A stretch of 14,063 nucleotides of DNA. It comes from a virus (Duplodnaviria; Heunggongvirae; Uroviricota; Caudoviricetes). The stretch lies in the IMG/VR virus record IMGVR_UViG_2693429635_000015. One strand, written 5' to 3'. Shown in pieces: positions 1-14,063 of this stretch. Position 1 is the first letter of the stretch, and the number at the start of each line of letters is the position of its first letter. Below the pieces are notes generated by a model. That model was given only the letters and a program-made list of their open reading frames with translations. It was not told where the DNA came from and searched no databases. The translations under genes and the position numbers were made by a program.

Positions 1-957
1 CCCCAGTTCCAGCCCCGGACGCCACAGATAGTTACCCTCGGTGTCTTTCAGCAGACGGATGGCAAACAGGCTGTTGTTGTTCATCATGAACTTCGCGCCG
101 GTGCGGTGTGCCTTACGCAGCGTGTAAATCAGTTTGATAATGGCGTCTGCGGTCACCGCCGTCGCTTCGCCGGATACAATATGCTGAAGTTTGCCGAACG
201 CCCGGACCTTATCGGTTTCATCCGTGGATTCATACGCCAGGAACCCTTTCGGCTTCTTGGTACCATCGCCGGTGGTAAAGGCAATTTCTTCCTGTTCGGC
301 AAATTCGGTTGCCAGCTCGCTGTTGATCCAGGCCTCCACGTTGAAAAAGGCATCATCCAGCATTTTCTGGGTGGCCTGCGGGTTACCGTAGATTTCCCCC
401 ATGAAAGGTTCAATCAGTCCCAGTCTGGAGGTGGCAGTCTGGGAGCGCGCGTCAGTCTCGCCAACCCATCCGGAAGCCGTGCCGCCCAGATTCACCAGTT
501 TTTTGTAGTCGGAACCGCCAACGGTGATCACCGCGGCTTCCTGGCGCATCACCACTTCATCTTTCAGCAGGGTCAGAATGTTGCGATCCAGCGCTTCCGG
601 CACGGCATAGCCACCGTCTTCATCGGTGCCCACCTGTAATGCCTTGCGCTCCAGATCACGCAGACCATCTTCACGGCCTTTACGCAGGAAGCCCACAAAC
701 GCTTCTTTATGCTCGGTGGCCAGTTGATTCTGCGCACCACCTGCCGGACGTTTCAGCTCAATCAGCTCTTTTTCAAGGTCGCTTTTGAGATTTTCCAGCT
801 CGCTGAGTTTCCCGTTCAGGGTTTCCACCTGCCCGGCAAGTTTGCCTTTTTCCTGCTCAATCGCATCCACGCGCTTGTCGTTCTTTGCCTTGAAGTCGTC
901 AAACTTCTGCTGCAGCTCCTGCGCGACCTGTTCGACATCTTTAATATCAACCGCCAT
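1..957 (-). CDS. Major capsid protein, HK97 family (partial; C-terminal part lies beyond the window start)
   Basis: Minus-strand frame open from ATG at 957-955 to the window edge, absent from the ORF track because it has no stop in the window. AGGAG RBS just upstream (revcomp of 961-972). My translation begins MAVDIKDVEQVAQELQQKFDDFKAKNDKRVDAIEQEKGKLAG..., a coiled-coil delta domain followed by capsid-like sequence (ALQVGTDEDGGYAVPEAL...). Position directly after the prohead protease fits the HK97 head module. Confidence 0.85.
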   Translation of the reverse strand, partial: MAVDIKDVEQVAQELQQKFDDFKAKNDKRVDAIEQEKGKLAGQVETLNGKLSELENLKSDLEKELIELKRPAGGAQNQLATEHKEAFVGFLRKGREDGLRDLERKALQVGTDEDGGYAVPEALDRNILTLLKDEVVMRQEAAVITVGGSDYKKLVNLGGTASGWVGETDARSQTATSRLGLIEPFMGEIYGNPQATQKMLDDAFFNVEAWINSELATEFAEQEEIAFTTGDGTKKPKGFLAYESTDETDKVRAFGKLQHIVSGEATAVTADAIIKLIYTLRKAHRTGAKFMMNNNSLFAIRLLKDTEGNYLWRPGLELG

Positions 958-971
958 CGTATTTCTCCTGA

Positions 972-1622
972 TTAGAAGTTCAGATTTTTCAGTGCATTCA
1001 GTGCAGAGCCCACATCCTCAGCGTCGCGCAGGGACAGTGCGCCATAGCCCCCGGCCATGAATGCTTTGGCCTGGGTACGGGAGAGTCCGACATCACGCAG
1101 GACTCTTTCGATTTTTTTCTGTTCAGGGATTTCCCCGCGGGCCAGCGCGTTCTTGACGTCGCTGATCCGCGCCTCGTCGTTAGACGGAAACGTCACCAGA
1201 CTGACTTCCCAGAGGTCGATTTCTTTCAGCAAAAAGGCTTCTTTCGTCCGGTCGTATTCCCAGTCTTTCAGGACGTACCCAATAGAAAGGCCGGTTAACG
1301 AACCGGCCTTCATGTGTGCATGTGCGCGTTTTGCCAGGGGATCATCATCAATGAGCAACCGCCCCCTGACGTAAAGCCCGACATCGTCTTCCTTCATTTC
1401 GGTGTAAACTCCGATGGGCTCATCCATGCGGTGCTGCCAGAGCAGCGCAGGTAACGCTTTTCTGTCACTCCACGCCCGCAGGGAAGCAGCAAATGCCCCG
1501 GACATCACCACATCATCGTGGCTGTCCTTTACACCAAAGACGGAGCCATACCCTTCAAACTCACCGGAGTCACTGACAGATTTCAGACTCAGCGGTACAT
1601 CAAGACGTTGTTTCGTCTGCAT
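972..1622 (-). CDS. Prohead maturation protease, HK97 family (S78/U35 type)
   Basis: ORF track 972..1658 contains the GYGSVFGVKDSHDDVV motif region typical of HK97-type prohead proteases and sits between portal and capsid. I prefer the internal ATG at 1622 (AAGGA RBS 7 nt upstream) over 1658, which overlaps the portal by 59 nt and lacks an SD; the start is uncertain. Confidence 0.8.
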   Translation of the reverse strand: MQTKQRLDVPLSLKSVSDSGEFEGYGSVFGVKDSHDDVVMSGAFAASLRAWSDRKALPALLWQHRMDEPIGVYTEMKEDDVGLYVRGRLLIDDDPLAKRAHAHMKAGSLTGLSIGYVLKDWEYDRTKEAFLLKEIDLWEVSLVTFPSNDEARISDVKNALARGEIPEQKKIERVLRDVGLSRTQAKAFMAGGYGALSLRDAEDVGSALNALKNLNF

Positions 1623-2841
1623 TGGCGTTATCCTTCTGCTTACCGGCTTTACTGCCATCGGAGGGTTTCGTGGTCATGTTCATCGGTGTGAGATAGACAT
1701 CACCACCGGGACGCGGATTCATATCTTCGAGGTCGCGGCAGTCATTGGGAGAGTAAATTCCCCAGTTGATCCCGGTAGCGTAGGCTTCAAAACGGGACTT
1801 CATATCCCCGCGCAGTAAGGCCCCGGCGTTAAATTTGGCGTAATAAACGCCCTGCTTACTTTTTCGTACCAGTCCGGTGTTGATCCGCTGCTCAATGCGG
1901 GTCAGATACGGCACCAGTGAATAGTTGATAAATCCCAGCCCCAGCTCTTCGATATTGTTGAAGGTGGCGCGATCGGTGTTCTGCACCATGTGCAATGGCA
2001 CCCGGAACAGACGACAGATTTCTTCAAGCTGAAACTTGCGGGTTTCCAGGAACTGGCTGTCCTCGGCGTTCAGCGCCATCGACTTCCAGTCCAGCCCCAT
2101 CTCAAGGATCATCGGGCGGTGAGCATTGCCAAGCCCGGTGTGACGCTCCTCAAAATCTTTCTTCAGGCGCTCGTAAGCCTGATCTGACAGCGTCTGCTCT
2201 GTACGCAACACACCCGACGTCACCGCACCATTGCTGAACAGTCTGGCCCCGTGCTCTTCGGTCGCTGCCGCCAGCGATATTGCCTCGCGGGCATAGGCGA
2301 TGGGATTCAGCCCCACCAGTCCGTCCAGCGTCAGCGTGCGCACATGCCAGATATCTTCCTGGCTCAGCACATCCGTGGAGCCGTCCGGGAATGTGACCTG
2401 ATAGACCGGCTCCCAGCTACTGTTAAGCTTCGGTACCACACAGCCGGGATCGACGGGCAGCAGTTCAGCCACTTCGCCAAATGCTTTCACTTTGTAGGCG
2501 TAAAAGTTTCCCCGCAGGCACAGACAGGTGACCACCAGCTCCCAAAACTCCTGCGGCGTCATATAGCCATTGGGATGCGTGGAAATCAGCTTATGCAGAC
2601 GTTCGCCGGTGGCTCTCTGTTTCAGGTTGCCGTTCAGGTGATACAGGTTGCAGGGCAACATCCCGACCGACTCTGCCAGCACCCTGACGCAGGAAAAAAC
2701 CGCCGTCAGTCGCATGGCCCGCTGACTGCTGATCTGCTTTCCGGTATAGGTGTCGTAGGACAGCCCGATAGCGTCCGCCAGCTCTGCTGGCGTGGTCACC
2801 GGTGCGTCACTTTTCCGTTGAAATAATCCCGAAAAGAACAC
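1600..2841 (-). CDS. Portal protein, HK97 family
   Basis: 413-aa ORF between terminase and protease, the canonical position. GTG start at 2841 with GGAGGT RBS 5 nt upstream; it overlaps the stop of the upstream small ORF (TAGTG), suggesting translational coupling. Confidence 0.85.
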   Translation of the reverse strand: MFFSGLFQRKSDAPVTTPAELADAIGLSYDTYTGKQISSQRAMRLTAVFSCVRVLAESVGMLPCNLYHLNGNLKQRATGERLHKLISTHPNGYMTPQEFWELVVTCLCLRGNFYAYKVKAFGEVAELLPVDPGCVVPKLNSSWEPVYQVTFPDGSTDVLSQEDIWHVRTLTLDGLVGLNPIAYAREAISLAAATEEHGARLFSNGAVTSGVLRTEQTLSDQAYERLKKDFEERHTGLGNAHRPMILEMGLDWKSMALNAEDSQFLETRKFQLEEICRLFRVPLHMVQNTDRATFNNIEELGLGFINYSLVPYLTRIEQRINTGLVRKSKQGVYYAKFNAGALLRGDMKSRFEAYATGINWGIYSPNDCRDLEDMNPRPGGDVYLTPMNMTTKPSDGSKAGKQKDNANADETTS

Positions 2842-3023
2842 TATTTACCTCCGCCGACAGACGACTGTGTACGGTCGAGATATCGCGCCACCAGCCACGA
2901 CCAGAACAGGCACAGCGCCCCGGCAACAACAAAACCCGCCGGGGGATAAATCAGCCAGGCACCATACGCCAGCAAAAGCGCACCCAGCACGCCCACCAGA
3001 GGCGCTAAAATCAGCATGATCAT
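2841..3023 (-). CDS. Small hydrophobic protein (60 aa, two predicted TM helices), function unknown
   Basis: ATG at 3023 with GAGGT-like RBS. The sequence [49 protein letters not shown] is strongly hydrophobic. It fills the TerL-portal gap exactly and its stop overlaps the portal start. Confidence 0.5.
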
Positions 3024-3034
3024 AATTACCTCAG

Positions 3035-4768
3035 TTAAAGCGAGCGGATCCCATAGGACTCAATGTGGTCAGACAGCGTGTCTTCTTTCTCGTACAGCAT
3101 GGCTCTGCCAACCGCCATAATCAGCGCAACTGCACCGTCAATTTTGTTTTCCGCCTGCTCTTTGACGGGCTTCACCACATCATCGTTACCCGGCATGTTT
3201 TTGCCGACCACGTTGCCGATACACCAGGTCATGATGGGATTGCCGTCATGATGAAAACGTCCCGATTCAATCGCTGCTTCCAGCTCTTTCATCGGATCGG
3301 ACATATTGGTGAAGTTCTGGACGATAGTGACGGGATTCAGGTCTTCATCAGCAAGGTCATGTGACAGCCCGGTCGCCCCGAAGGGGTCGATGGGTGACTC
3401 GCTGACCGGGCTGATTTTGTTCGCCGCTTTGGCCTCTTCGAGGATGTAGCGATAATCCACCTCTGCACCATCGGTAACGGTCAGGACGCCCATTTCCACC
3501 CATTTCTGAAAGCGTTCGGCTGTCCGGCGATCTTCATTTTTCTCGACGCTGTACACCGTGTCATACGGTACCCAGAAACGCGGGGCCACACTGTAGTAAT
3601 GCGTTTTACCGTCAATCTCGCGGGTATAAAGTCGCGCCATGCTGTTCATATCCAGTTTACGCGCCAGGTCAAAGGCCAGAATGCACGGCTGCCCCTCGAA
3701 TTGCTCAAGAGTCAGTGATTTATCCTCGCAGCTCTGCCAGCTCACCAGGTTGAAATACGCCGAACGCGCCGACACCCAGATATTGAGGTGTTTTGTTTTA
3801 AAGACGTTTGCCAGACGGGCGTTATTCTTCGCACGCTGTTGCTGACTTAACAAAAACTCACGGTAAACCGACACCCCGATATTCGGGTTGGCTTTTTCCA
3901 GCACCTGTGGGTTGGTCCAGTCGTCACCTTCGTCAACGGTATAGATGATCCCGAACAGTTCATCGTTGGGTACCGAACCGTTGAGCATCTCGATAACTTC
4001 CCGCCGTTTGTCGTAGCACGGCCCCTCAATGTTGTACCCGGCAGTAGTAATGGCCCACATCAGTGGCTGACGTCGCGCCCCCATCCCGGTAAGCATCGTG
4101 GTGTAAAGCGCATCGGTGGCGTGCTCGTGATATTCATCCACCACCGCATAGTGGGGTGATGATCCATCACCGGGGTTACCGATCAGCGGTTCAAACCGCG
4201 CGCCATCCTCCGGACGGTTCATGTTTGAGGCGTTAACCTCAATCCCGAACGCTTCCGTCAGCATGGGTGTGCGTTTACACATCAGTCGTGCCGGACGAAA
4301 GACTTCCCATGCCTGTTTCTCCGTCGTGGCACCGGAATACACTTCCGCGCCGAACTCGTTATCACAGGCAAAACAATACAGGGCAACACCGGCAGAGATT
4401 GCCGATTTGCCGTTCTTACGGGGGATTTCGGTATACACCTCCCGGAAGCGGCGCAGCCGGGAGCCTTTATTGACCCAGCCAAACGCGCAGCAGATCACAA
4501 AGAGCTGCCACGGCTCCAGCGTGATGGGCATCCGTTTGAATGCCCACTCACCCTTGGTGTGCGGCAACAGCTGAATAAATTTCGCGGCCCGTTCAGCCTG
4601 GTCCTTGTCGAAGCGGTAACGAAACGACTTACTTTTTTCCGCCATCAGGTCATCAAGATGGCGCTGGCAGGCCTGAATCACAAACTGGCAGGCCACAATC
4701 TTTCCGCGCACGACATCACGGGCATACTGATTGGCAGCATTTACGTTGGGGTAAGATTTCCGGCTCAT
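3035..4768 (-). CDS. Terminase large subunit
   Basis: 577-aa ORF with a Walker A-like P-loop ([10 protein letters not shown]) and acidic motifs (VVDEYHE). ATG at 4768 overlaps the TerS stop in an ATGA arrangement. Position between TerS and portal. Confidence 0.9.
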
Positions 4769-5259
4769 GATTCGATGATTTTCAGAAACGGGTTAGTGGC
4801 TTTCTTCTGCCCCGCCAGGCCAATCAGACGCTGGCGGCTGCTGGGGTCGAGTCCGAGCATTGCCCCCGTGCTGCTCATCTCGGACTCCTGTTCTTTCTTG
4901 GCGGTCAGCTCCGGATTTTTGACCATGCCACCCATTGCACCGGTGATGGTGTTGCCCTGTCTGGCAATATTTTTCACGGCACGTCGCCAGAACTCATAGG
5001 CCACGCACCACCGCTCAAGTACCGCCAGGTCAGTCACGCACAGCAGGCCCTGACCGCAGAGTTCTTTGGTTGTCAGTTGCCACATGATCGTGGCGAGAGG
5101 GAGATCTTCTTCAGCGAACCACTCCGGTGGCTCAACACCTTTGATGGGCGTAAAAACAGGTTCATCTTTATTCAGGGCTCGCTTGCCGGGGTTTCCGGCC
5201 AGCGCCTTGCGCGCCGTTGGCTTGGGGCGACGCCCGGAACGCCCCGCCGTTCCAGCCAT
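4765..5259 (-). CDS. Terminase small subunit (P27-like family)
   Basis: N-terminus [30 protein letters not shown] is characteristic of P27-family small terminase subunits. The first ATG is at 5259 with AGGAG 8 nt upstream; the ORF track's 5268 start is an in-frame GTG that I consider less likely. Confidence 0.8.
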
Positions 5260-5268
5260 ATGCGGCAC

Positions 5269-5384
5269 TCCTGGTTAAATTTCATTTTTCGCGGGTATAA
5301 AAAAACGATGGGGCGGGCAGTCCGGAAGACGTCAGGCCGCAGGGATTTGACCCGCCCCTCCCCTCAGGCAGTTGAGAATTATTA
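5269..5384. other. Candidate cos / terminase recognition region (copy A)
   Basis: Intergenic region between HNH and TerS, where HK97-like phages carry cos. It contains a GC-rich imperfect inverted repeat GGGGCGGGCAG ... TGACCCGCCCC flanking a central GACGTC palindrome. The exact cut site cannot be determined from sequence alone. Confidence 0.35.
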
Positions 5385-5735
5385 TCACTTCAACCGTTCA
5401 CGGGCCGTCTTCGCCTTATGACACGGCCAGCACAGACTCTGCAGATTACAGTCGGCATCAGTGCCGCCATGCGCTTTAGGGATGATGTGGTCAACGGTTT
5501 TCGCCTCGCGCACCACACCAGCACGCAGGCACAACTGGCACAGGCCTTTGTCACGCTTGAGCACACGTTCACGGATAACATCCCATTTCGAACCATAACC
5601 GCGCTGGTGTCGGGACTGGCCTGGCTTGTATTGCTTCCAGCCTTCGCTTTTGTGGCTTTCGCAATAGCCTGACGAGTCAGTGGTGGTATGGCGGCAGCCG
5701 CGAACGCGGCAGGCTTTTGGGGTTCGTGGGGGCAT
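5385..5735 (-). CDS. HNH homing-type endonuclease (phage cos-cleavage accessory HNH), copy A
   Basis: Cys-rich N-terminus (CRVRGCRH...CESH) and an HNH motif (DHIIPKAHGG...N...CWPCH). ATG at 5735 with AGAGGA RBS; the start is supported by the near-identical copy B, which begins MPPRTPKACR. Sits immediately upstream of TerS as in HK97-like phages. Confidence 0.8.
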   Translation of the reverse strand: MPPRTPKACRVRGCRHTTTDSSGYCESHKSEGWKQYKPGQSRHQRGYGSKWDVIRERVLKRDKGLCQLCLRAGVVREAKTVDHIIPKAHGGTDADCNLQSLCWPCHKAKTARERLK

Positions 5736-5885
5736 TGCATAATCCTCTTGGATGGTTCGCGTACGATACGTGGCACCCTTCTCAGAATCGAATCGCACTC
5801 CATTCCGGTTTTGCCATAAACGATCTTTTATGCTTCGCTGGATGTAGTTGATAGTTGTTGAAACTCAATGAACAGGAGTTCACAA

Positions 5886-6221
5886 ATGAATAGTTATGAA
5901 TGGGCATGGCTTTTGAACAAAGATGACACCCTATACTTTTTCCCCGTAGGCCATTCTGTAGAAGGTAATTACAAAATTCACTTTGAGTTGAGCGGTAGTT
6001 GTAACCTTAGAGTCTCAGATGCTGAATTGCATGGTAAACCTGTACTGCTGTTCGAATACTTCGATGAAGATGATGACCGCCCTGCAATAATCGAAATATT
6101 AGAAACAACCACTACAACTGTGGAGGCGATGATCGCACATCTGAATAGTATCGATAGTATTTACCATGAACCGATTTACAAAGCTGTTTACGAGTGGGCT
6201 GTAAAGTTTTTCTATCGATGA
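5886..6221 (+). CDS. Hypothetical protein (111 aa from the second ATG), AT-rich accessory gene
   Basis: ORF track 5868..6221. The second ATG at 5886 has AGGAG at 5874-5878 with 7-nt spacing. Composition is clearly AT-rich relative to the phage structural genes. I recognise no family; an acidic stretch (EYFDEDDD) and a TTTT run are present. Confidence 0.55.
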   Translation: MNSYEWAWLLNKDDTLYFFPVGHSVEGNYKIHFELSGSCNLRVSDAELHGKPVLLFEYFDEDDDRPAIIEILETTTTTVEAMIAHLNSIDSIYHEPIYKAVYEWAVKFFYR

Positions 6222-6321
6222 TACTTCGTTATCTTTCTGGCATTCACAATACCTTTACATATTAATGACATGCCAGCACAATACTGTCACTTACAACCGT
6301 TCGGATTACCTAGAGAAAAGT

Positions 6322-6438
6322 ATGATTCAGGATTTACTGATCGAAGCAATTAGTCACGATAGGATGCATAAAAAGTTAAATGAACTGAATGGCTACTTCT
6401 ACAATCGCAAACATGAAACACAAATACGTGATGAGTGA
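6322..6438 (+). pseudogene. Short ORF (38 codons) running into the IS3 left end; probable truncated gene
   Basis: ATG at 6322; the frame stays open to the TGA formed by the first three bases of the IS3 terminal repeat (6436-6438). Weak RBS. Could also be a chance ORF. Confidence 0.3.
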
Positions 6439-6500
6439 TCTTACCCAGCAATAGTGGACACGCGGCTAAGTGAGTAAACTCTCAGTCAGAGGTGACTCAC

Positions 6501-6800
6501 ATGACAAAAACAGTATCAACCAGTAAAAAACCCCGTAAACAGCATTCGCCTGAATTTCGCAGTGAAGCCCTGAAGCTTGCTGAACGCATCGGTGTTACTG
6601 CCGCAGCCCGTGAACTCAGCCTGTATGAATCACAGCTCTACAACTGGCGCAGTAAACAGCAAAATCAGCAGACGTCTTCTGAACGTGAACTGGAGATGTC
6701 TACCGAGATTGCACGTCTCAAACGCCAGCTGGCAGAACGGGATGAAGAGCTGGCTATCCTCCAAAAGGCCGCGACATACTTCGCGAAGCGCCTGAAATGA
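6501..6800 (+). CDS. insE: IS3 transposase OrfA (InsE-like, HTH DNA-binding)
   Basis: 99-aa product [50 protein letters not shown]... matches my memory of IS3 InsE. GAGGTGA RBS upstream of the ATG at 6501. A probable -1 slippery site (CCAAAAG around 6761-6767) lies near the 3' end. Confidence 0.85.
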
Positions 6801-7663
6801 AGTATGTCTTTATTGAAAAACATCAGGCTGAGTTCAGCATCAAAGCAATGTGCCGCGTGCTCCGGGTGGCCCGCAGCGGCTGGTATACGTGGTGTCAGCG
6901 GCGGACAAGGATAAGCACGCGTCAGCAGTTCCGCCAACACTGCGACAGCGTTGTCCTCGCGGCTTTTACCCGGTCAAAACAGCGTTACGGTGCCCCACGC
7001 CTGACGGATGAACTGCGTGCTCAGGGTTACCCCTTTAACGTAAAAACCGTGGCGGCAAGCCTGCGCCGTCAGGGACTGAGGGCAAAGGCCTCCCGGAAGT
7101 TCAGCCCGGTCAGCTACCGCGCACACGGCCTGCCTGTGTCAGAAAATCTGTTGGAGCAGGATTTTTACGCCAGTGGCCCGAACCAGAAGTGGGCAGGAGA
7201 CATCACGTACTTACGTACAGATGAAGGCTGGCTGTATCTGGCAGTGGTCATTGACCTGTGGTCACGTGCCGTTATTGGCTGGTCAATGTCGCCACGCATG
7301 ACGGCGCAACTGGCCTGCGATGCCCTGCAGATGGCGCTGTGGCGGCGTAAGAGGCCCCGGAACGTTATCGTTCACACGGACCGTGGAGGCCAGTACTGTT
7401 CAGCAGATTATCAGGCGCAACTGAAGCGGCATAATCTGCGTGGAAGTATGAGCGCAAAAGGTTGCTGCTACGATAATGCCTGCGTGGAAAGCTTCTTTCA
7501 TTCGCTGAAAGTGGAATGTATCCATGGAGAACACTTTATCAGCCGGGAAATAATGCGGGCAACGGTGTTTAATTATATCGAATGTGATTACAATCGGTGG
7601 CGGCGGCACAGTTGGTGTGGCGGCCTCAGTCCGGAACAATTTGAAAACCAGAACCTCGCTTAG
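6797..7663 (+). CDS. insF: IS3 transposase OrfB (InsF-like, DDE integrase core)
   Basis: 288-aa product matching remembered IS3 InsF (…[34 protein letters not shown]…[10 protein letters not shown]…). In the -1 frame relative to OrfA, overlapping it by ATGA. Confidence 0.9.
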
Positions 7664-7693
7664 GCCTGTGTCCATATTACGTGGGTAGGATCA

Positions 7694-7862
7694 AAGCGAG
7701 AGGGAGATCTTCTTCAGCGAACCACTCCGGTGGCTCAACACCTTTGATGGGCGTAAAAACAGGTTCATCTTTATTCAGGGCTCGCTTGCCGGGGTTTCCG
7801 GCCAGCGCCTTGCGCGCCGTTGGCTTGGGGCGACGCCCGGAACGCCCCGCCGTTCCAGCCAT
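7694..7862 (-). pseudogene. Terminase small subunit 5' fragment (first ~56 codons) truncated by IS3
   Basis: Identical to the N-terminal coding part of the 4765..5259 TerS ([18 protein letters not shown]...EEDLPLA). The reading frame then runs into the IS3 right end (ORF track 7677..7871). Confidence 0.75.
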
Positions 7863-7871
7863 ATGCGGCAC

Positions 7872-7987
7872 TCCTGGTTAAATTTCATTTTTCGCGGGTA
7901 TAAAAAAACGATGGGGCGGGCAGTCCGGAAGACGTCAGGCTGCAGGGATTTGACCCGCCCCTCCCCTCAGACAGTTGAGAATTATTA
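7872..7987. other. Candidate cos / terminase recognition region (copy B)
   Basis: Same GGGGCGGGCAG...GACGTC...CCCGCCCC architecture as 5269..5384, differing by three substitutions that I could see. Confidence 0.3.
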
Positions 7988-8338
7988 TCACTTTAACCGT
8001 TCACGGGCCGTCTTCGCCTTATGACACGGCCAGCACAGACTCTGCAGATTACTGTCAGCATCAGTGCCGCCATGCGCTTTAGGGATGATGTGGTCAACAG
8101 TTTTCGCCTCACGCACCACACCAGCACGCAGACATAACTGACACAGACCTTTGTCACGCTTCAGAACACACGCGCGGATACTGTCCCACTTCGAACCGTA
8201 GCCGCGCTGATGACGGGATTGTCCAGGTTTGTATTGCTTCCAGCCTTCGCTTTTGTGGCTTTCGCAATAGCCTGACGGGTCAGTGGTGGTATGGCGGCAG
8301 CCGCGAACACGGCAGGCTTTTGGGGTTCGTGGGGGCAT
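7988..8338 (-). CDS. HNH endonuclease, copy B
   Basis: 116-aa ORF with the same HNH motifs as copy A. ATG at 8338 with AAGGAG RBS 8 nt upstream. Confidence 0.8.
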   Translation of the reverse strand: MPPRTPKACRVRGCRHTTTDPSGYCESHKSEGWKQYKPGQSRHQRGYGSKWDSIRACVLKRDKGLCQLCLRAGVVREAKTVDHIIPKAHGGTDADSNLQSLCWPCHKAKTARERLK

Positions 8339-8388
8339 TTAAATTTCTCCTTCAATCATTACTACTGGTCTACCCATCGTAATGGCAA

Positions 8389-8419
8389 CAAAAAACCGCC
8401 CGTGGAAAGTGGGCGGTTT
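8389..8419 (-). terminator. Rho-independent terminator (minus strand)
   Basis: Perfect 8-bp GC-rich stem (AACCGCCC / GGGCGGTT) with a ~9-nt loop, followed on the minus strand by a run of 7 T. Lies 15 nt downstream of the 8434..8754 gene. Confidence 0.6.
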
Positions 8420-8433
8420 AGGAGAGAATCGAT

Positions 8434-8754
8434 TTAAATCAAATTGCCGATAAATTTCGCCTGTACAGACAGAGTCGCACCAGGAACACCAGCAATTCCA
8501 CCTTCAAGGTAATAACCATCCCCAATATCTCTCACAGAGAGATCCATCACATAATCGTTAAGGCCTGCAATAACGTTTTGTGCTGAAGGGTTATGGCGGG
8601 ATACATGAAGTTTCAATACCCCATCTTGTACACGCCCCTGATAGGTAAACCCAAAATCACCACCATTAACCGCATTATCCTTCACAACGACCGTGCCATT
8701 GCCAACATCATTATGACCGCTTCTGAACACAACAAAATAAATGCCGTCTTTCAT
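8434..8754 (-). CDS. Hypothetical protein (106 aa), moron-like gene between spanins and HNH
   Basis: ATG at 8754 with AAGGA RBS 8 nt upstream. Preceded by a ~90-bp AT-rich spacer and followed by the terminator at 8389..8419. Gly-rich with no obvious signal peptide; family not recognised. Confidence 0.55.
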   Translation of the reverse strand: MKDGIYFVVFRSGHNDVGNGTVVVKDNAVNGGDFGFTYQGRVQDGVLKLHVSRHNPSAQNVIAGLNDYVMDLSVRDIGDGYYLEGGIAGVPGATLSVQAKFIGNLI

Positions 8755-8846
8755 GTGTATAGTCCTTCAAAAAAATCACCCAAATCAGGTGCTTTGTATC
8801 TATTGGGTCATCACATATCAAATCAAGGAACAAAATAAAGTGAACA

Positions 8847-9116
8847 TCATTTTTTTTGCATGATGTGACCACGCTCAACTTCAATCCTTCTGATGTCAGC
8901 TTTATCGGTATTACACTGCGCCAATGCAGACAACAAGGCGGCATTCAGATCTAAGCTCGAGCCCCACGTAAAATGATCAGGTAAATCAGGCTGAGGGGTT
9001 TCAGCCGTCAGGCTGGCTGGCAGTGGTACCGTCGGAGTGTTCACGTAAACTGTCCGCATACTTCCGCAACCGCTCAGCAGCGGCAGCAGGCACAAGACGT
9101 GAAGCACAATCATCAT
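8847..9116 (-). CDS. Rz1-like o-spanin (outer-membrane lipoprotein), overlapping Rz in a different frame
   Basis: Within ORF 8847..9344 (different frame from Rz) an internal MM start precedes a lipobox-like LLSGC and a Pro-rich segment (TPTVPLPASLTAETPQPDLP). RBS is weak and the start uncertain. Extends past the Rz stop, so the pair is overlapped rather than embedded. Confidence 0.5.
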   Translation of the reverse strand: MMIVLHVLCLLPLLSGCGSMRTVYVNTPTVPLPASLTAETPQPDLPDHFTWGSSLDLNAALLSALAQCNTDKADIRRIEVERGHIMQKK

Positions 9117-9393
9117 CCGCAACGGCCATTTTGATATCTTCCTGGGTTCTTTGTGACTCCAGTGCGATCTGCTGTTTTGCATGCTGGTTAGCCTCCAGTA
9201 CTGTATTGACGATTTGCAGTGATTGCAGGACGTTATTGGTAATGGCTGTTGCTGATCCAGCATTTCGTTCAGCCTCATCAGCACGCTTCTTTTCGTACTG
9301 ATATTTGCTGTAGTAGTGGTTGGCTGACCAGATGAAAGAACCAATGACAGTAACGAAGAAAGCAGCGATAACCAGCTTATAGCTCAACTTCAT
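9001..9393 (-). CDS. Rz-like i-spanin (inner-membrane spanin subunit)
   Basis: 130 aa with an N-terminal TM helix (LVIAAFFVTVIGSFIW) followed by a charged, coiled-coil-like domain. Immediately downstream of the endolysin, overlapping its stop. Confidence 0.65.
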   Translation of the reverse strand: MKLSYKLVIAAFFVTVIGSFIWSANHYYSKYQYEKKRADEAERNAGSATAITNNVLQSLQIVNTVLEANQHAKQQIALESQRTQEDIKMAVADDDCASRLVPAAAAERLRKYADSLREHSDGTTASQPDG

Positions 9394-9853
9394 TTATCAC
9401 CCCACCAGCCTCTTCAAACCGTGCAATCAGGTCACCGATTTTATGTTCATACTGACCGTAACCTGCACCAGGTAATGACGCCCAGATATTGCTGCAACGG
9501 TCGATTGCCTGACGAATATTGCCACGGTCAATCATCGGTAAAGCGCCACGCTCTTTAATCTGCTGCAGAGCTACAGCGTCCTGGCTTTCTGGAGAAAAAT
9601 CTTTCAGGCCAAGCTGTTTACGGTAAGCATCCCACCAGCGTGAAAGAAGCTGGTAACGTCCGGCGGCTGTTGACTTGAGTTTCGGGTTTAGCGTGACAAG
9701 TTTGCGAGGGTGATCGGAGTAATCAGTGAAGAGTTCACCACCGACAATAACGTCATAACCGTGGTTACGTGTCGGTTGTCGTCCGTTATCCGTTCCTTCT
9801 GACCATGCCACCATATCAAGGAAAGCTTTACGCTGGGAATTTAGTACCTGCAT
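9377..9853 (-). CDS. R: Endolysin, lambda R-type lytic transglycosylase
   Basis: 158-aa product ...NSQRKAFLDMVAWSEGTDNGRQPTRNHGYDVIVGGELFTDYSDHPRKLVTLNPKLKS...RYQLLSRWWDAYRKQLGLKDF... is near-identical over long stretches to phage lambda R as I remember it, including the catalytic-region EGT motif. AAGGAG RBS upstream of the ATG at 9853. Confidence 0.9.
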   Translation of the reverse strand: MQVLNSQRKAFLDMVAWSEGTDNGRQPTRNHGYDVIVGGELFTDYSDHPRKLVTLNPKLKSTAAGRYQLLSRWWDAYRKQLGLKDFSPESQDAVALQQIKERGALPMIDRGNIRQAIDRCSNIWASLPGAGYGQYEHKIGDLIARFEEAGGVINEVEL

Positions 9854-9856
9854 AAA

Positions 9857-10183
9857 TTACTCCTTAGAGCCACCAAATTTGTTACCGATTACTCGCATTG
9901 CAGCCCCACGAATAGCATCGACACCGATCAGCCCCACCCCACCACCAATGGCAACAGAAAGTGATTTAGGCCATCCGACATACTCAAGAGCGGATGCAAA
10001 GGTCAGCGTCAGAGCGCCACATAGCAAAATCTCGAGCGTTTTTCGCTTCCAGCCACCACCACCGCCAAAATAGGCGATGCGCAAACCAGCCATAACGATC
10101 GACATAATCACTGCACCCAGCGGTGTGTCTCCACGCCACCAGCTCTGGACCAAGTCCAGCCAGGTATTTGGGTTATGAGGCAT
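9857..10183 (-). CDS. Holin (class I-like, three predicted TM segments)
   Basis: Immediately upstream of the endolysin with a 3-nt gap. Three hydrophobic segments and a charged C-terminus. I chose ATG at 10183 (GAGGT-containing RBS region); the ORF track's longer form starts at a GTG at 10279 that overlaps the methylase 3' end. Confidence 0.6.
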   Translation of the reverse strand: MPHNPNTWLDLVQSWWRGDTPLGAVIMSIVMAGLRIAYFGGGGGWKRKTLEILLCGALTLTFASALEYVGWPKSLSVAIGGGVGLIGVDAIRGAAMRVIGNKFGGSKE

Positions 10184-10225
10184 TTCGTCATCTCTCACCT
10201 CGCGATATTTGCGGGTGCTGTGTTG

Positions 10226-10254
10226 GAAATAAAAAGGCCACGCAACGTGGCCAC
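10226..10254 (-). terminator. Putative rho-independent terminator (minus strand) between methylase and holin
   Basis: Stem GGCCACG / CGTGGCC with a 3-nt loop, followed on the minus strand by TTTTTATTT. The short loop makes this moderate confidence. Confidence 0.45.
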
Positions 10255-10259
10255 CAGAA

Positions 10260-11312
10260 TTATTTCCCCACCAGTTCACTTACCTCTTTCACCGTCTGAT
10301 TAAACCGCTCTGACTCAAGTTCAACACCTAACGCCCGACGCCCCAGCGCCATTGCTGCTTTTATTGTGGAACCGGATCCCATAAAAAAATCAGCAACCAG
10401 ATCACCAGGTCGACTACTGGCATTGATTATTTGCCTGAGCATATCCGCCGGTTTCTCACACGGATGTTTACCCGGGTAGAACTGAACGGGTTTATGCATC
10501 CAGACATCGGTATAAGGCACGGAGACTGATACGGAGAAATAGCGCCGGAGAGATTTAAACTCATCCAGCAATTCAGAATATTTGCGATTCAGTGAATCAT
10601 AAGACGCCACCAGCTGGTGGTGTGGTTGTTCCAGTTGTTGTTCCTGAAACTTCTCTGCCGCTATACGGGAAAACAGTGCCTGTAACTTCCGATAGTCAGC
10701 CTCATTCGGCAACTGCCACTGACTGGCACCAAACCAGTGGGAAACCATATTTTTCTTACCTGTGGCTTCGGCAATTTGTTTTGCCGTTATACCCAGTTCG
10801 GCACGAGCATCCCTGAAATACGATATCAGCGGTGCCATTATGTGCTGTTTGAGTTCCCTTTCTTTTGCCGCATAGCCGTCACTTTTGCCGCGATATGGCC
10901 CCTGGTAATGTTCAGCAAACAGAACGCGCTCTGTGGCAGGAAAATATGCGCGCAGACTTTCTTTATTACACCCATTCCAACGTCCGGACGGCTTCGCCCA
11001 GATGATATGGTTAAGCACGTTGAAACGTTCACGCATCATGATCTCAATATCAGATGCCAGGCGATGCCCACAGAACAGGTAAAGGCTTCCGGCAGGTTTC
11101 AACACCCGCCAGAACTGGGCCAGACAGTGGTCCAGCCACTTAAGGTAATCTTCGTCCCCTTTCCACTGATTGTCCCAACCGTTGGGTTTCACCTTGAAAT
11201 AAGGCGGATCGGTAACAATCAGGTCAATGGAATCATCAGGCAGGGACTGAATAAAATGCAGGCAATCAGCGTTGATTAAATCAACACTGTTTATTTTTAC
11301 AGTATTTTTCAT
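10260..11312 (-). CDS. DNA methyltransferase (amino-MTase, beta-class motif order; probably N6-adenine)
   Basis: 350 aa with catalytic motif IV DPPY near the N-terminus (IVTDPPYF) and AdoMet-binding motif I FxGxG near the C-terminus (FFMGSGST). No adjacent restriction endonuclease gene, so it looks like an orphan phage methylase. Confidence 0.85.
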   Translation of the reverse strand: MKNTVKINSVDLINADCLHFIQSLPDDSIDLIVTDPPYFKVKPNGWDNQWKGDEDYLKWLDHCLAQFWRVLKPAGSLYLFCGHRLASDIEIMMRERFNVLNHIIWAKPSGRWNGCNKESLRAYFPATERVLFAEHYQGPYRGKSDGYAAKERELKQHIMAPLISYFRDARAELGITAKQIAEATGKKNMVSHWFGASQWQLPNEADYRKLQALFSRIAAEKFQEQQLEQPHHQLVASYDSLNRKYSELLDEFKSLRRYFSVSVSVPYTDVWMHKPVQFYPGKHPCEKPADMLRQIINASSRPGDLVADFFMGSGSTIKAAMALGRRALGVELESERFNQTVKEVSELVGK

Positions 11313-11461
11313 GGATCAGTAAGCGTAACTCTGGTAGGCTCACTCTGCTTTTGCGCTAAAGCAGTGGGCCGTGGTTCGCTTGTGACCAGTAAGCATGAGC
11401 GAATGGCTGGCAGGTGCTACCAACACCCACCAGCCGCCCATTTTCACAAATTAAAAGTCCT

Positions 11462-11656
11462 TCATTGCTGAAGGCGTCTGTAACAGCCGAACTGGTAATC
11501 TGCCAGCCCCGCCATAACCAACTGGGTCAGTATTAACTGACAGCGTTCGCGTGAAAGATATGTGTTTTGTGCAATCTCCCCGACTGTTGCCGGTTCGATG
11601 CTTAATTCATTAAAAACAACTTTCGCCGTTTCTGTCATATCTTGCTGTTTTAGCAT
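11462..11656 (-). CDS. Small hypothetical protein (64 aa), possibly HTH DNA-binding
   Basis: Within ORF 11462..11680; the internal ATG at 11656 has AAGGA 8 nt upstream. The segment TVGEIAQNTYLSRERCQLILTQL resembles a helix-turn-helix. First gene after the 11779-11804 terminator on the minus strand. Confidence 0.4.
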   Translation of the reverse strand: MLKQQDMTETAKVVFNELSIEPATVGEIAQNTYLSRERCQLILTQLVMAGLADYQFGCYRRLQQ

Positions 11657-11778
11657 GTCTTTTTTCCTTCTGGTTAACATGACATACCAATAACTCTTGT
11701 CTAAAAAGCCAGCAAGATAAAAAGTCAGTATTCACGACCACCAGCGTGTTTACCGTACTGCACCAGGTTTACAGGTAC

Positions 11779-11804
11779 AAAAAAACCCGCTCGACGGCGG
11801 GTTT
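11779..11804 (-). terminator. Rho-independent terminator (strong on minus strand, weak on plus); candidate tR'-like late terminator
   Basis: 7-bp stem AACCCGC / GCGGGTT with a 6-nt loop, followed on the minus strand by 7 T (plus-strand A run 11779-11785). On the plus strand only TTT follows. Confidence 0.6.
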
Positions 11805-11961
11805 AAGTTGTGTGGCGAAGTAACCACTCTTAACACGATATAATACTTTTTGCGTACGCGTTAACTTTTTCTGTAGTATTTAGTGTAAGATTCTTCACAA
11901 GATAGATACTTTGGAGTACATGATGTAAAGTGCTGTATGCATAAACAGTACAAAGGATATC

Positions 11962-12483
11962 ATGATGAACAAATTAGCACGCTTATTATTAACAGCAAGC
12001 TCAATTGCACCTGTTTGCGCAACTCTATTTTTTATTGGATATGTAAAAGATACGGTTTGGCTGATGCAATATAGCTTATGCGTTGGCATAGCAAGTTGGT
12101 TATTAGCAATAGGCCTGATTCAATATGCTGAGAAACAACTTGAACCTCTGACAAAAAATATTAGTTCAGTTTCTCCCGCTAACAAAGAAGTAACTAATTA
12201 TTTCTTAAGCTATTTATTCCCTCTCCTAGGAACAGACTCTATTGCTGAAAATAAAGCATATGCGTTATTCTTTTATTTGTCATTGTTATTTTACATCAGC
12301 TTTTCCGAGAACTATAACTTTAACCCAGTATTGTCACTTATCGGTTATAAATTTTACGAAGCTGAAGATGACACCGGCGTAGGTTTTGTATTGATTTCTA
12401 AATCAGTCATTACTGATATTAAAGATATCAAATTTACAGTTATTCAATTAACAGACTACACATTTCTACATGTTAAAGGATAA
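11962..12483 (+). CDS. Integral membrane protein (173 aa, ~4 predicted TM helices plus a ~60-aa C-terminal soluble tail); first gene of candidate accessory/defense cassette
   Basis: AAGGA RBS before a tandem ATG at 11962. Hydrophobic segments at roughly residues 8-28, 35-55, 80-92 and 100-115. Strongly AT-rich codon usage, unlike the flanking phage genes. Opposite strand to all surrounding phage genes. Confidence 0.65.
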   Translation: MMNKLARLLLTASSIAPVCATLFFIGYVKDTVWLMQYSLCVGIASWLLAIGLIQYAEKQLEPLTKNISSVSPANKEVTNYFLSYLFPLLGTDSIAENKAYALFFYLSLLFYISFSENYNFNPVLSLIGYKFYEAEDDTGVGFVLISKSVITDIKDIKFTVIQLTDYTFLHVKG

Positions 12484-12488
12484 TAACC

Positions 12489-13373
12489 ATGGCACTTTTT
12501 GCAGTAATAGATAATACAATTGCAACGAGAATTGTTAGAGTCGAACTTGATGCAACAGCAAGTACTTCTGTTACGGCCATTTTCCAACAACAGCGTCAAT
12601 ATTTTGAAAGTCATCATAACAATATGATACCATTCTATGCCGGTTATACACCAAAACATAGTGAGTGTTTTGAAATACAAAACTTTACTGATTCTGCACG
12701 CCTGATTGACGCAGTCAATAGGCCTACCGCCGTGCCTGTCTGGGATCCCAGCCAAATTGATATTGGTTATATTAAAGCATTATTTGTTGGTGTTGACGCG
12801 CCAGCAAACCCCAATATTATTGCGCTACAAACCTTCAACAAAAAACAAATCTTAGATACCTCAAAATCATTCTTTGGAAAGCTTTTTGCAAGCAAAACTA
12901 CCTTTAGTAAAGCTAATAGCATCGGTTTTAATGTTGATGATAAACTAGTTGCAATAATTATCAATGATACAATACGATTTAAGAGTTTCTTTAATCTAAG
13001 AAGCATTTTTGACATGTTGTCCTATTTTTCTGCTGCTACTGACCAAGAACTTAATGCATTTAGTCAACTTAGTGTATTTTCTACTCCCCAAGGTTTTGAT
13101 CTAAAATCCGTTGCAGATACAGTGATAAGAAATAAAGTAACACTAATAAATCAGACTGGGATGCTAACACCCCAAAATATGTCAAAGTTTAAATCCGAAG
13201 CTGCTAAAGTCAATTTCCCCTTACAAACCATAATAGTTGGCGGTGTTGAGAAAATTGTCATGCCTTCATCAAAAAAAGAAATAAAAGCCCTTCTTGACTT
13301 TCTTGAGGAAGACATTTGGATTTCTGGGATAAGTGGAAGACGCTTTAAATCGAATTCAAAGCGCCCAATATAA
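12489..13373 (+). CDS. Hypothetical cytoplasmic protein (294 aa); second gene of candidate accessory/defense cassette
   Basis: ATG at 12489 lies 5 nt after the upstream stop, with AAAGGA 8 nt upstream, so the two genes are translationally coupled. AT-rich, no TM segments, no motif I can assign with confidence (an R-x5-H pattern near residue 36 is noted but weak). Its stop is 21 nt from the convergent Q stop. Confidence 0.65.
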   Translation: MALFAVIDNTIATRIVRVELDATASTSVTAIFQQQRQYFESHHNNMIPFYAGYTPKHSECFEIQNFTDSARLIDAVNRPTAVPVWDPSQIDIGYIKALFVGVDAPANPNIIALQTFNKKQILDTSKSFFGKLFASKTTFSKANSIGFNVDDKLVAIIINDTIRFKSFFNLRSIFDMLSYFSAATDQELNAFSQLSVFSTPQGFDLKSVADTVIRNKVTLINQTGMLTPQNMSKFKSEAAKVNFPLQTIIVGGVEKIVMPSSKKEIKALLDFLEEDIWISGISGRRFKSNSKRPI

Positions 13374-13394
13374 CTAGAAGACAGTTAAGAATAG

Positions 13395-13742
13395 TTAACA
13401 GGCAAGAGTGCAAACAATGCCTTCAATGAAACCAAGCGATGTTTGCAACTCTTTCCTGATAGTCCCATCCGAACACTTTCTCTTCTTAGCAATGGCTCGC
13501 AATGAAATCCCTACTACAAAATGGGCTATAACTAACTCATACTCTTCTGGTTTGTACTTTCTTAATCTAGCTACGCACCCATCGATCATGAGCCCCTCAT
13601 CATCATCACACTGAATCCGGGACTTTTTGCCATGAGGTAAAAGCCCCTTGAAGCCAGCGGCTACCGGTTGCCAGTCCACTCCGCTATTGTCTGAAGCAGC
13701 CCAAGCTCCCCAACGATCCATCACTTCATACATATCACGCAT
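13395..13742 (-). CDS. Late-gene antiterminator Q (small Q class, phage 82 / DLP12 QuuD-like)
   Basis: 115 aa from the first ATG at 13742 (GGAG RBS 7 nt upstream); the ORF track's 13757 start is TTG. Contains RWGAWAA and Cys-rich motifs (CDDDE...DGC, ...CSDG) that I associate with small Q antiterminators. Position (after a DUF1364 gene, upstream of the lysis genes) fits. Confidence 0.65.
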   Translation of the reverse strand: MRDMYEVMDRWGAWAASDNSGVDWQPVAAGFKGLLPHGKKSRIQCDDDEGLMIDGCVARLRKYKPEEYELVIAHFVVGISLRAIAKKRKCSDGTIRKELQTSLGFIEGIVCTLAC

Positions 13743-13759
13743 CAACTTTCTCCACAAAA

Positions 13760-14050
13760 TCAGGCCAGCACGCCAATTGCCAGCGCACGATCGATAAAAC
13801 GAAATATCAGCTCCAGCTGGGAGCCATACTTCTCTTCAAATGCCACGGTATCCGCATGCAGCTCGTCGTGATGCTTTCTGCACAAAGGCAACACAAAGAG
13901 GTCATGCGCTTTTGTACCCATCCCACCCTGACCGTGGCCTATCAAGTGGTGGGGATCATCAGCAGGCTTTCCACAACATGCACACGGCTGTGTCTTAACC
14001 CAGCGCGTGTACTTTTCATTAACCCAGCGGCGACGTTTTGGGCGTAACAT
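13760..14050 (-). CDS. DUF1364 / YbcO-like zinc-binding putative nuclease (Nin-region protein)
   Basis: 96 aa with CxCC...HH...C..HH cysteine/histidine clusters. GGAG RBS 6 nt upstream of the ATG at 14050. Size and position immediately upstream of Q resemble ybcO of DLP12-type prophages; assignment from memory. Confidence 0.55.
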   Translation of the reverse strand: MLRPKRRRWVNEKYTRWVKTQPCACCGKPADDPHHLIGHGQGGMGTKAHDLFVLPLCRKHHDELHADTVAFEEKYGSQLELIFRFIDRALAIGVLA

Positions 14051-14063
14051 AAAAGACTCCGGC

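Follow-up and report, generated by a model that had tools for sequence, protein, structure and literature searches.

Among the closest described relatives of the locus analysed here are the e14-like, HK97-type prophages of Escherichia coli integrated at icd, which have intE and xisE beside icd, carry an HNH–TerS–TerL–portal–S78 protease–capsid gene order with a TerS of the P27 family, and vary in the cargo found in a slot between the lysis genes and the HNH gene. In HK97-like phages, an HNH gene next to that of the terminase helps in the cleavage of cos. The second element of the locus, E. coli IS3 (IS3 family, IS3 group), is a 1258-bp insertion sequence, and it is textbook knowledge that IS elements bring about deletions, inversions and hybrid joints in the prophages of E. 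coli. The window, that is, the whole stretch of DNA analysed (14,063 nucleotides), corresponds to the entire contig CXZY01000054.1 (14063 bp) of the draft assembly GCA_001283525.1, and no mention of the assembly accessions was found in the literature. Within it, IS3 stands between parts of two related prophages; we describe an ancestral insertion on its left side, a derived junction on its right side, and a join between the two that was probably created during assembly.

Results

The left part of the window (1–5259, minus strand) is the head and packaging module of an e14-like, HK97-type prophage, here called prophage A, as identified by Pfam and by the RefSeq annotation of the PS1Thumoskin9 locus (99.99% identical). 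From the same two sources it comprises, all on the minus strand, a partial capsid gene (1–957), an S78 prohead protease (972–1622), a portal (1600–2841), a YmfR-like gene (2841–3023) and TerL (3035–4768), which are joined by an intact P27-family TerS (4765–5259, minus strand; Pfam Terminase_4) and an HNH endonuclease gene of 116 aa (5385–5735, minus strand; Pfam HNH, E = 5e-15). The HNH gene lies directly upstream of the Terminase_4 TerS and of TerL (TerL_ATPase/TerL_nuclease), the arrangement by which an HK97-type module is recognized.

To the right of the HNH gene, two AT-rich ORFs (37–40% GC) on the plus strand form a moron; the first (5886–6221) encodes 111 aa and belongs to PHROG 14397, and the second (PHROG 12494) is present as a 5' fragment (6265–6438, by translation) cut by IS3. 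Searches of Pfam, PADLOC and PHROGs for a function of the two ORFs matched only PHROG families of unknown function. In its intact form, the second ORF is annotated with 189 aa and an ATG start at 6322, and intact 189-aa homologues exist. The stop codon TGA of the fragment is made up of the last G of the flank and the first two bases of IS3, and in silico excision of IS3 from L001 restores the open frame. IS3 itself (6436–7693, plus strand, 1258 bp; orfA, 6492–6800, and orfB, 6797–7663, both on the plus strand by ORF calling) is complete and 100% identical to copies in finished genomes annotated as 'IS3-like element IS3 family transposase'. Its termini, with TGATC at the start and GATCA at the end, form imperfect inverted repeats (28/40 matches), and its 387-aa transposase product contains Pfam HTH_Tnp_1 and rve; the orfA and orfB frames overlap, and an identical RefSeq copy bears a 'programmed frameshift' note. 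IS3 is a multicopy element, occupying a median of 3 places per genome. The flanks in the window read ...GATGAG–IS3–AAGCGAG..., with no 3-bp target duplication around the element (GAG on the left, AAG on the right). The element is IS3, yet its present flanks are not from one insertion event.

Comparison with relatives, which the first-pass annotation of the window had proposed as a way to see the ancestral arrangement, supplied that arrangement. E. coli PS1Thumoskin9, which differs by one SNP from window positions 1–7693, carries IS3 at the same base with a perfect duplication (GAG–IS3–GAG), inside an ORF continuing beyond the IS, and has no right-hand TerS–HNH repeat beside the element. The target site is empty, and the 189-aa ORF uninterrupted, in 76 finished genomes; the empty site of UPEC_U013 reads GATGAGTTAG. 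From these comparisons, the left junction is an old simple IS3 insertion, here designated IS3a, and the GAG at 6433–6435 is the original left half of its 3-bp target duplication. IS3a interrupts the second of the two AT-rich moron genes, which separate the lysis genes from HNH–TerS in the e14-like, HK97-type prophage A, integrated at icd. Since PS1Thumoskin9 shows the same left junction and the GAG duplication without the right repeat, the right junction is derived, giving the pattern of a hybrid junction with one ancestral flank, one derived flank and a known duplication-bearing ancestor.

The segment to the right of IS3 begins with a direct repeat. Positions 5093–5736 of prophage A, covering TerS codons 1–56 (Pfam Terminase_4), the intergenic region, to which the first-pass annotation had given the putative label cos-like, and the HNH gene (Pfam HNH), recur at 7696–8339, a copy 98.9% identical to TUM14664. 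Full alignment of the two gives 31 mismatches over 644 bp (95.2% identity), a similarity far beyond chance; the first 245 bp are identical (the right copy starts as 5093–5337), and most differences fall within the HNH gene. The repeat-finder seed spanned 5086–5385 and 7689–7988 at 98%. The right TerS (7677–7862, minus strand) equals the left one through Ala56 and then continues as LILPT and a stop, these 5 codons and the stop being supplied by the IS3 end, and the resulting 61-aa TerS–IS3 fusion product is recorded from one contig only. The right HNH endonuclease gene also encodes 116 aa (7988–8338, minus strand; Pfam HNH, E = 2e-16). The first-pass annotation had described, from the letters of the window, a complete IS3 with unequal flanking triplets, this direct repeat, a right TerS cut by the IS after about codon 56, and an AT-rich ORF reading into the IS end, all of which the alignments and translations bear out.

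The remainder of the right part (8434–14063), assigned by homology, Pfam and PADLOC, contains on the minus strand a GrlR-like gene (8434–8754), lysis genes (9001–10183), a DNA methyltransferase (10260–11312), antiterminator Q (13395–13742) and, at the right contig end, a partial DUF968 gene. On the plus strand, kwaA (11962–12483; PADLOC, E = 2e-83) adjoins kwaB (12489–13373; PADLOC, E = 1e-149; Pfam KwaB), identifying a Kiwa anti-phage system. Positions 7696–10207 and 11782–14063 are 98.9% and 99.7% identical to TUM14664, respectively, and not to PS1Thumoskin9. By homology, the sequence to the right of IS3 is that of a second, related e14-like prophage, here called prophage B. The claim of the first-pass annotation that IS3, as flanked here, is not a simple insertion but separates parts of two related prophages is upheld by the comparisons with PS1Thumoskin9 and TUM14664. 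No genome with the mosaic of the window was found by BLAST with 7694–14063 or by a protein search with the methyltransferase (best coverage, 75%); the methyltransferase allele of prophage B is widespread. The left contig end lies inside a 250-nt run that matches exactly between A-type and B-like capsid genes, a hint that the genome contains another head module at a different place. An attempt to assign genes to contigs from the protein accessions CTT35532 and CTT35601 was dropped, the order of their numbering not being known.

At the right junction, alignment of TerS alleles leaves the dinucleotide AA (7694–7695). Base 7694 (A) agrees with no part of IS3 and with none of about 1087 TerS copies, and base 7695 agrees with the 'TAG' TerS allele alone; homology to TerS begins at 7695 or 7696, and the new flank is not uninterrupted target sequence from its first base onwards. 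A synthetic TerS 91-mer with A at the equivalent of 7694 found 0 exact matches among 1087 TerS places in 994 genomes (best, 98.9%), and AAG was rejected as a normal target duplication on this ground; a TerS allele with that A and a further SNP is still conceivable. The identity between the copies starts right after a known G/A polymorphic TerS site, as expected for a repeat-graph boundary. A 302-bp query across the right junction had no covering match in 5426 complete E. coli genomes, and a search for an exact 27-mer found nothing in collections of viral, metagenome and species-representative sequences.

The accession numbers of three draft assemblies (L005, L007 and L009) are adjacent to that of the window's assembly; these share its left part, moron and IS3, and there a single N separates IS3 from a second TerL'/TerS–HNH–lysis block. 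At its start, this block exactly repeats upstream sequence of the same scaffold, over 134 nt in L005 and 902 nt in L007, and the right part of the window likewise opens with an exact upstream copy of 245 nt. In L007 the sequence reads ...GGATCA A N, with the same extra A as at base 7694 of the window, and in L005 and L009 the IS3 halts at nucleotide 1010, as would be expected for read-by-read gap filling. Other short-read contigs of the locus, among them the 8.5-kb Logan contigs L012 and L013, end at the IS3 boundary. In all four finished or long-contig genomes carrying IS3a, the right flanks are GAG-TTAG... or ATATTGCG...icd, and a second TerS–HNH copy is present in none of the four. An approximately 21-kb deletion adjacent to IS3a, without target duplication, is found in three finished or long-contig genomes; a one-sided rearrangement of the proposed type demonstrably does happen at IS3a.

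Discussion

From the ancestral insertion and the foreign right side, the fact that the contig is part of a draft, the single N found at this spot in related scaffolds and the absence of the junction elsewhere, we infer that the join across the multicopy IS3 was probably made in silico. Short reads are unable to span a multicopy IS of 1258 bp. In the proposed course of events, prophages A and B would reside in the same genome, and a scaffolder and gap filler probably tied a short dead-end branch, leading from the moron to IS3, to the alternative TerS–HNH repeat branch, after which the gap filler would have walked through IS3, leaving an IS3 without target duplication beside what looks like a direct repeat of 644 bp. 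Prophage B may have its own IS3 at TerS codon 56, in which case assembly merged two copies of the element; alternatively, the contig on the right may simply begin at the repeat boundary. The only pointers to a Velvet/SSPACE/GapFiller pipeline, which may have produced the assembly, are the accession series and the single-N pattern; the publication of one pipeline of this kind warns that the use of SSPACE and GapFiller 'can lead to false joins' and reports 4–10 misassemblies per genome (PMC5320598). Speaking against an assembly join is the join in the window itself, which has no N, unlike that in L005, L007 and L009. Gap closers normally require overlapping reads to remove a gap; reads containing the IS3 end followed by AAGCGAG may therefore exist, which would make at least that half-junction real. 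The real one-sided events caused by IS3a, namely the 21-kb deletion, also mean that a real event is not far-fetched.

The first-pass annotation had interpreted the locus as an IS3-mediated chimera; the two prophages and the derived right junction stand, but physical continuity through the IS is unsupported, and on the exclusion of assembly collapse, which that annotation had itself listed as a check, the indirect evidence leans to an assembly join. That one IS3 physically bridges prophages A and B is a serious possibility of lower probability, and the product would be a chimeric prophage in which 2.6 kb separates two HNH/intergenic copies and one TerS is intact. To give such a structure, IS3a may have recombined in a RecA-dependent manner with a second IS3 at prophage B TerS codon 56, resulting in inversion or deletion, although this needs two rare events as against one or none for an assembly join. 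Intramolecular transposition of IS3a into the TerS of a tandemly integrated prophage B is another route, with deletion of about one phage length (the moron 3' end, lysis A, early genes and int A, then tail and head B), and IS3-mediated fusion with a circular prophage B genome is a further one. The sequence is contiguous across the join with no N, an ancestral left junction paired with a derived right one is the mark of a one-sided IS event, the two prophage parts are oriented alike, which a tandem-prophage deletion requires, and the approximately 21-kb adjacent deletion without duplication is genuine in three finished or long-contig genomes. However, the junction occurs in a single draft contig, an explicit gap interrupts this layout in related assemblies, and base 7694 fits neither a 3-bp duplication nor direct strand transfer into the approximately 1087 TerS copies. 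The break of the contig in the capsid stretch shared with B-like phages, which suggests that the head genes of B are still present, contradicts the route by transposition into a tandem prophage B, and removal of these genes was discarded as the likeliest real route, the contig end suggesting a second capsid copy.

Two further explanations have very low probabilities. Illegitimate, non-transposase recombination at a GATC microhomology between the IS3 end (GGATCA) and TerS (TGATCG) would make the position at the IS end nearly a coincidence; the shared GATC did lead the repeat finder to extend the match to 5086/7689, but it is only four bases long, the junction has no independent occurrence, and the break coincides precisely with the canonical CA terminus of IS3, which indicates the IS end itself or an assembly-graph boundary. 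We regard this as highly improbable. Even less credible is an ancestral 644-bp duplication into which IS3 was later inserted simply between the copies, the flanks having become unequal by point mutation. No point in support of it was found; a relative with both repeats and without IS3, which the first-pass annotation had named as its own refutation, did not appear among the genomes searched, the insertion site is inside the 189-aa ORF, of which the window lacks the 3' part, and the two repeat copies have different closest relatives. PS1Thumoskin9, with the same insertion, a perfect GAG duplication and no right repeat, contradicts this scenario, as do the 76 uninterrupted sites.

If the join were real after all, a single vertically inherited IS3a would have at least three right-hand partners across E. 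coli strains, a proposition that we consider rather unlikely: the original duplication, the 21-kb deletion, by which int is lost and the remnant locked in place, and the fusion at prophage B TerS codon 56. The IS3 end would then repeatedly, and from one side, drive the decay of prophages and the formation of chimeras, and the product would have doubled HNH/intergenic regions and a new Kiwa defence cargo upstream of the old head module. Either reading is known biology, and the IS3a insertion is already present in finished genomes. The locus is a caution that an IS without target duplication amid direct repeats in a draft contig is just what scaffolding and gap filling give rise to where two related prophages and a multicopy IS coexist, and that such signatures need comparison with finished relatives before being called rearrangements. 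A single point of biology is solid: the verified 21-kb deletion adjacent to IS3a in other strains shows how this element wears down the icd prophage.

It is worth comparing the locus with the known systems to which it is related. With E. coli IS3, the window copy shares the length of 1258 bp, the TG...CA ends, the inverted repeats and orfA/orfB with a programmed frameshift, but it lacks the 3-bp duplication (GAG versus AAG) that the PS1Thumoskin9 insertion has (GAG/GAG). With the e14-like prophages at icd, it has ymfR and the gene order from HNH to capsid in common, and differs in being composed of parts of two of them with different cargo, the 111/189-aa moron on one side and GrlR-like, Kiwa and methyltransferase genes on the other. 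The IS3a deletion variant of E. coli (NCTC assembly UGFL01000003, strains 602687 and CD45) has a left junction and moron fragment identical to those of the window, likewise no target duplication, and a head module within 1–4 SNPs; in that variant, however, the right end of IS3 runs into ATATTGCG... at about 0.7 kb from icd, with loss of the lysis genes, early genes and int, a second TerS–HNH copy is absent, and the arrangement is seen in finished or multi-megabase contigs. Finally, the window shares with the false joins of scaffolded, gap-filled assemblies a multicopy IS within a draft contig, related scaffolds with a single N at the same place and a right part starting as an exact upstream copy, and differs from them in having no N at the join.

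An IS3 copy between direct repeats

The IS3 copy in the window (6436–7693; 1258 bp, starting with TGATC and ending with GATCA) carries imperfect terminal inverted repeats (28/40 matches) and two overlapping frames (6492–6800 and 6797–7663), and is 100% identical to IS3-annotated copies in RefSeq finished genomes. It is preceded by ...GATGAG and followed by AAGCGAG...; the flanking triplets being GAG versus AAG, no 3-bp duplication surrounds the element. The direct repeat, for which the repeat finder gave the seed 5086–5385/7689–7988, is colinear by alignment from 5093/7696 to 5736/8339 (644 bp, 31 mismatches, 95.2%), without difference over the initial 245 bp and with most mismatches in the HNH gene, and comprises codons 1–56 of a P27-family small terminase (TerS), the intergenic region and the gene for a 116-aa HNH endonuclease. 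The right TerS receives five codons and a stop from the IS3 end, and the stop codon of the second of two + strand ORFs (37–40% GC) left of the element is created at the IS3 boundary. The features described in the first-pass annotation (the IS3, its unequal flanks, the repeat, the cut TerS and the AT-rich ORFs) are all present in the sequence, and the observation of an IS3 between direct repeats without target duplication is confirmed.

Ancestral state of the left junction

Positions 1–7693 differ by one base, through the final base of IS3, from the finished chromosome of E. coli PS1Thumoskin9, in which the same IS3 is flanked by GAG on both sides and the interrupted ORF runs on past it, toward the lysis genes. 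Removal of IS3 in silico restores the open frame, intact 189-aa homologues of which are recorded, and the empty site (GATGAGTTAG) occurs in 76 of the 79 finished genomes in which the two-gene moron separates HNH from the lysis genes. The GAG...GAG flanks, the restored ORF and the empty sites together mean that this copy (IS3a) is by origin an ordinary simple insertion, which still has its original left flank in the window. The PS1Thumoskin9 prophage adjoins icd, with intE/xisE, and its ymfR places it in the e14-like, HK97-type group, to which the left prophage (prophage A) belongs. An ancestral 644-bp duplication followed by a later simple IS3 insertion was rejected on the PS1Thumoskin9 insertion with its GAG duplication and on the moron site in finished genomes.

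The moron (window 5886–6438, +; intact in another locus, L028, at 2650–3655) encodes proteins of 111 and 189 aa at the same 37–40% GC, and occupies, on the opposite strand, the slot that separates HNH from the lysis genes. Pfam and PADLOC gave no match for either ORF, and the only families matched, PHROG 14397 and 12494, have no known function. The same slot carries GrlR-like, Bor, KilA-N/ORF11CD3 and DUF2513 proteins in relatives, and in genomes with such matches NYN-domain and DUF6731 proteins may also occupy it; the slot looks like a cargo hot spot. In its early region the PS1Thumoskin9 icd prophage harbours another identical IS3, opposite in orientation to the moron copy (icd-side locus L025, 16769–18026), and a further IS3-family element truncates its tail genes (locus L001, 1–1292; adjacent CDS annotated incomplete). 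IS elements are eroding this prophage from several sides.

Origin of the right side

Identity to strain TUM14664 is 98.9% over 7696–10207 (cut TerS, HNH, GrlR-like gene and lysis genes) and 99.7% over 11782–14063 (KwaA/KwaB and Q). The intervening methyltransferase segment is similar to other relatives. The right part therefore derives from a second e14-like prophage, itself a mosaic (prophage B). The proposal of two related prophage modules is correct.

Prophage B carries a complete two-gene Kiwa anti-phage system (11962–13373, +; PADLOC: KwaA, 173 aa, E = 2e-83; KwaB, 294 aa, E = 1e-149), located between the genes for antiterminator Q and the methyltransferase and oriented against the late genes. 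No restriction gene adjoins that for the 350-aa N6/N4 DNA methyltransferase (10260–11312, −; Pfam E = 2e-42; PADLOC Type II MTase E = 6e-152), which is probably an orphan phage methylase; an identical protein is found widely among lambdoid and e14-like prophages whose head modules differ. For the 106-aa ORF 8434–8754 (−), relatives carry the annotation GrlR-family regulator; the Pfam GrlR match of the ORF, covering residues 1–61 only, lies under the gathering threshold (24.1 vs 26.8 bits), and a further match is to PHROG 2483, whose function is unknown.

One-sided events at the same IS3

In NCTC UGFL01000003, 602687 and CD45 (finished or multi-megabase), the left junction is identical and the head module lies 1–4 SNPs apart, and the IS3 right end meets ATATTGCG..., ~0.7 kb from icd (L006 11373–12070; L026 and L027, 7958 onward). 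This breakpoint corresponds to position 11574 of L025, so that ~21 kb, including int, xis, the early genes, Q, the lysis genes and a HEPN/Toprim-associated gene, has been deleted beside IS3 without duplication, leaving a locked-in head module as its remnant. Genuine one-sided IS3 events hence do happen at IS3a. A second TerS-HNH copy right of IS3a was found in none of the four finished genomes examined.

Assembly join or real chimera

The window is the entire contig CXZY01000054.1 (14063 bp) of the draft GCA_001283525.1, by exact-protein look-up, and evidence from this and related drafts suggests that the join across IS3 was made in silico, a reading to which we give slightly better than even credence. 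IS3 occurs in several copies, with a median of three places per genome, and independent short-read contigs of the locus (L012–L014) end at its boundary. The drafts CYGD, CXZS and CYEQ, of neighbouring accession numbers, show the same moron and IS3, a single N within or directly after IS3 (scaffolds L005, 11125; L007, 11374; L009, 2599) and then, from another prophage, a second TerL'/TerS-HNH-lysis block. In two of the three, IS3 breaks off at exactly nucleotide 1010, perhaps a position polymorphic among IS3 copies; the third has a full-length IS3, then 'A', then N. The block after the N begins with 134 nt (L005) or 902 nt (L007) identical to the scaffold's own upstream copy, and the right part of the window likewise begins with 245 nt identical to 5093–5337. 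Gaps and copied starts of this kind are expected from scaffolding and read-by-read gap filling over a two-prophage fork, past which the A-specific branch is only ~700 bp long, a dead end in a repeat. In one published pipeline of such a design, SSPACE runs for 16 rounds and GapFiller for 120; its authors caution on false joins and give 4–10 misassemblies per genome (PMC5320598). The same pipeline may have produced the window's assembly.

The junction itself occurs in none of 5426 complete E. coli genomes and in none of three public contig collections. Base 7694 (A), the first past the IS3 end, fits no TerS allele, and none of 1087 TerS places matched exactly a synthetic allele with A at the equivalent position; in L007, too, IS3 is followed by this 'A', with which the ATATTGCG flank also begins. 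Base 7695 agrees with the 'TAG' TerS allele only, and identity to the left copy starts directly past a known G/A polymorphic site in TerS, as expected at a repeat-graph boundary. Each contig end lies within a phage gene, capsid at position 1 and DUF968 at 14063; the left end falls in a 250-nt run exactly common to the A-type and the B-like capsid genes, 99 nt short of the first difference between them. This is consistent with more related prophage copies in the source genome and suggests a second head module there, which argues against a deletion having removed the head genes of prophage B.

A real IS3-mediated chimera, formed by recombination between IS copies, by intramolecular transposition between tandem prophages or by replicon fusion, is possible, though we would wager against it. 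No N marks the window's join, so that reads bridging the IS3 end and AAGCGAG may exist, and if they do, at least one IS3 end truly adjoins codon 56 of the prophage B TerS. Even then, short reads cannot tie that IS3 copy to the moron, and a second IS3 in prophage B merged with IS3a by the assembler would give the same contigs as a real IS3 × IS3 inversion. The alternative partners of IS3a would read as the IS3 right end followed by GAGTTAGTTG or ATATTGCGATGG, and TerS codon 57 onwards at an IS3 left end as ...CACATGATCGT[A/G]G followed by TGATCTTACC. Other routes to the junction share a small remainder. Of the IS3-mediated chimera first proposed, flanks not derived from one insertion and two prophages stand, but on physical continuity the indirect evidence leans toward an assembly join. 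Whether assembly join or real chimera, the arrangement belongs to known biology.
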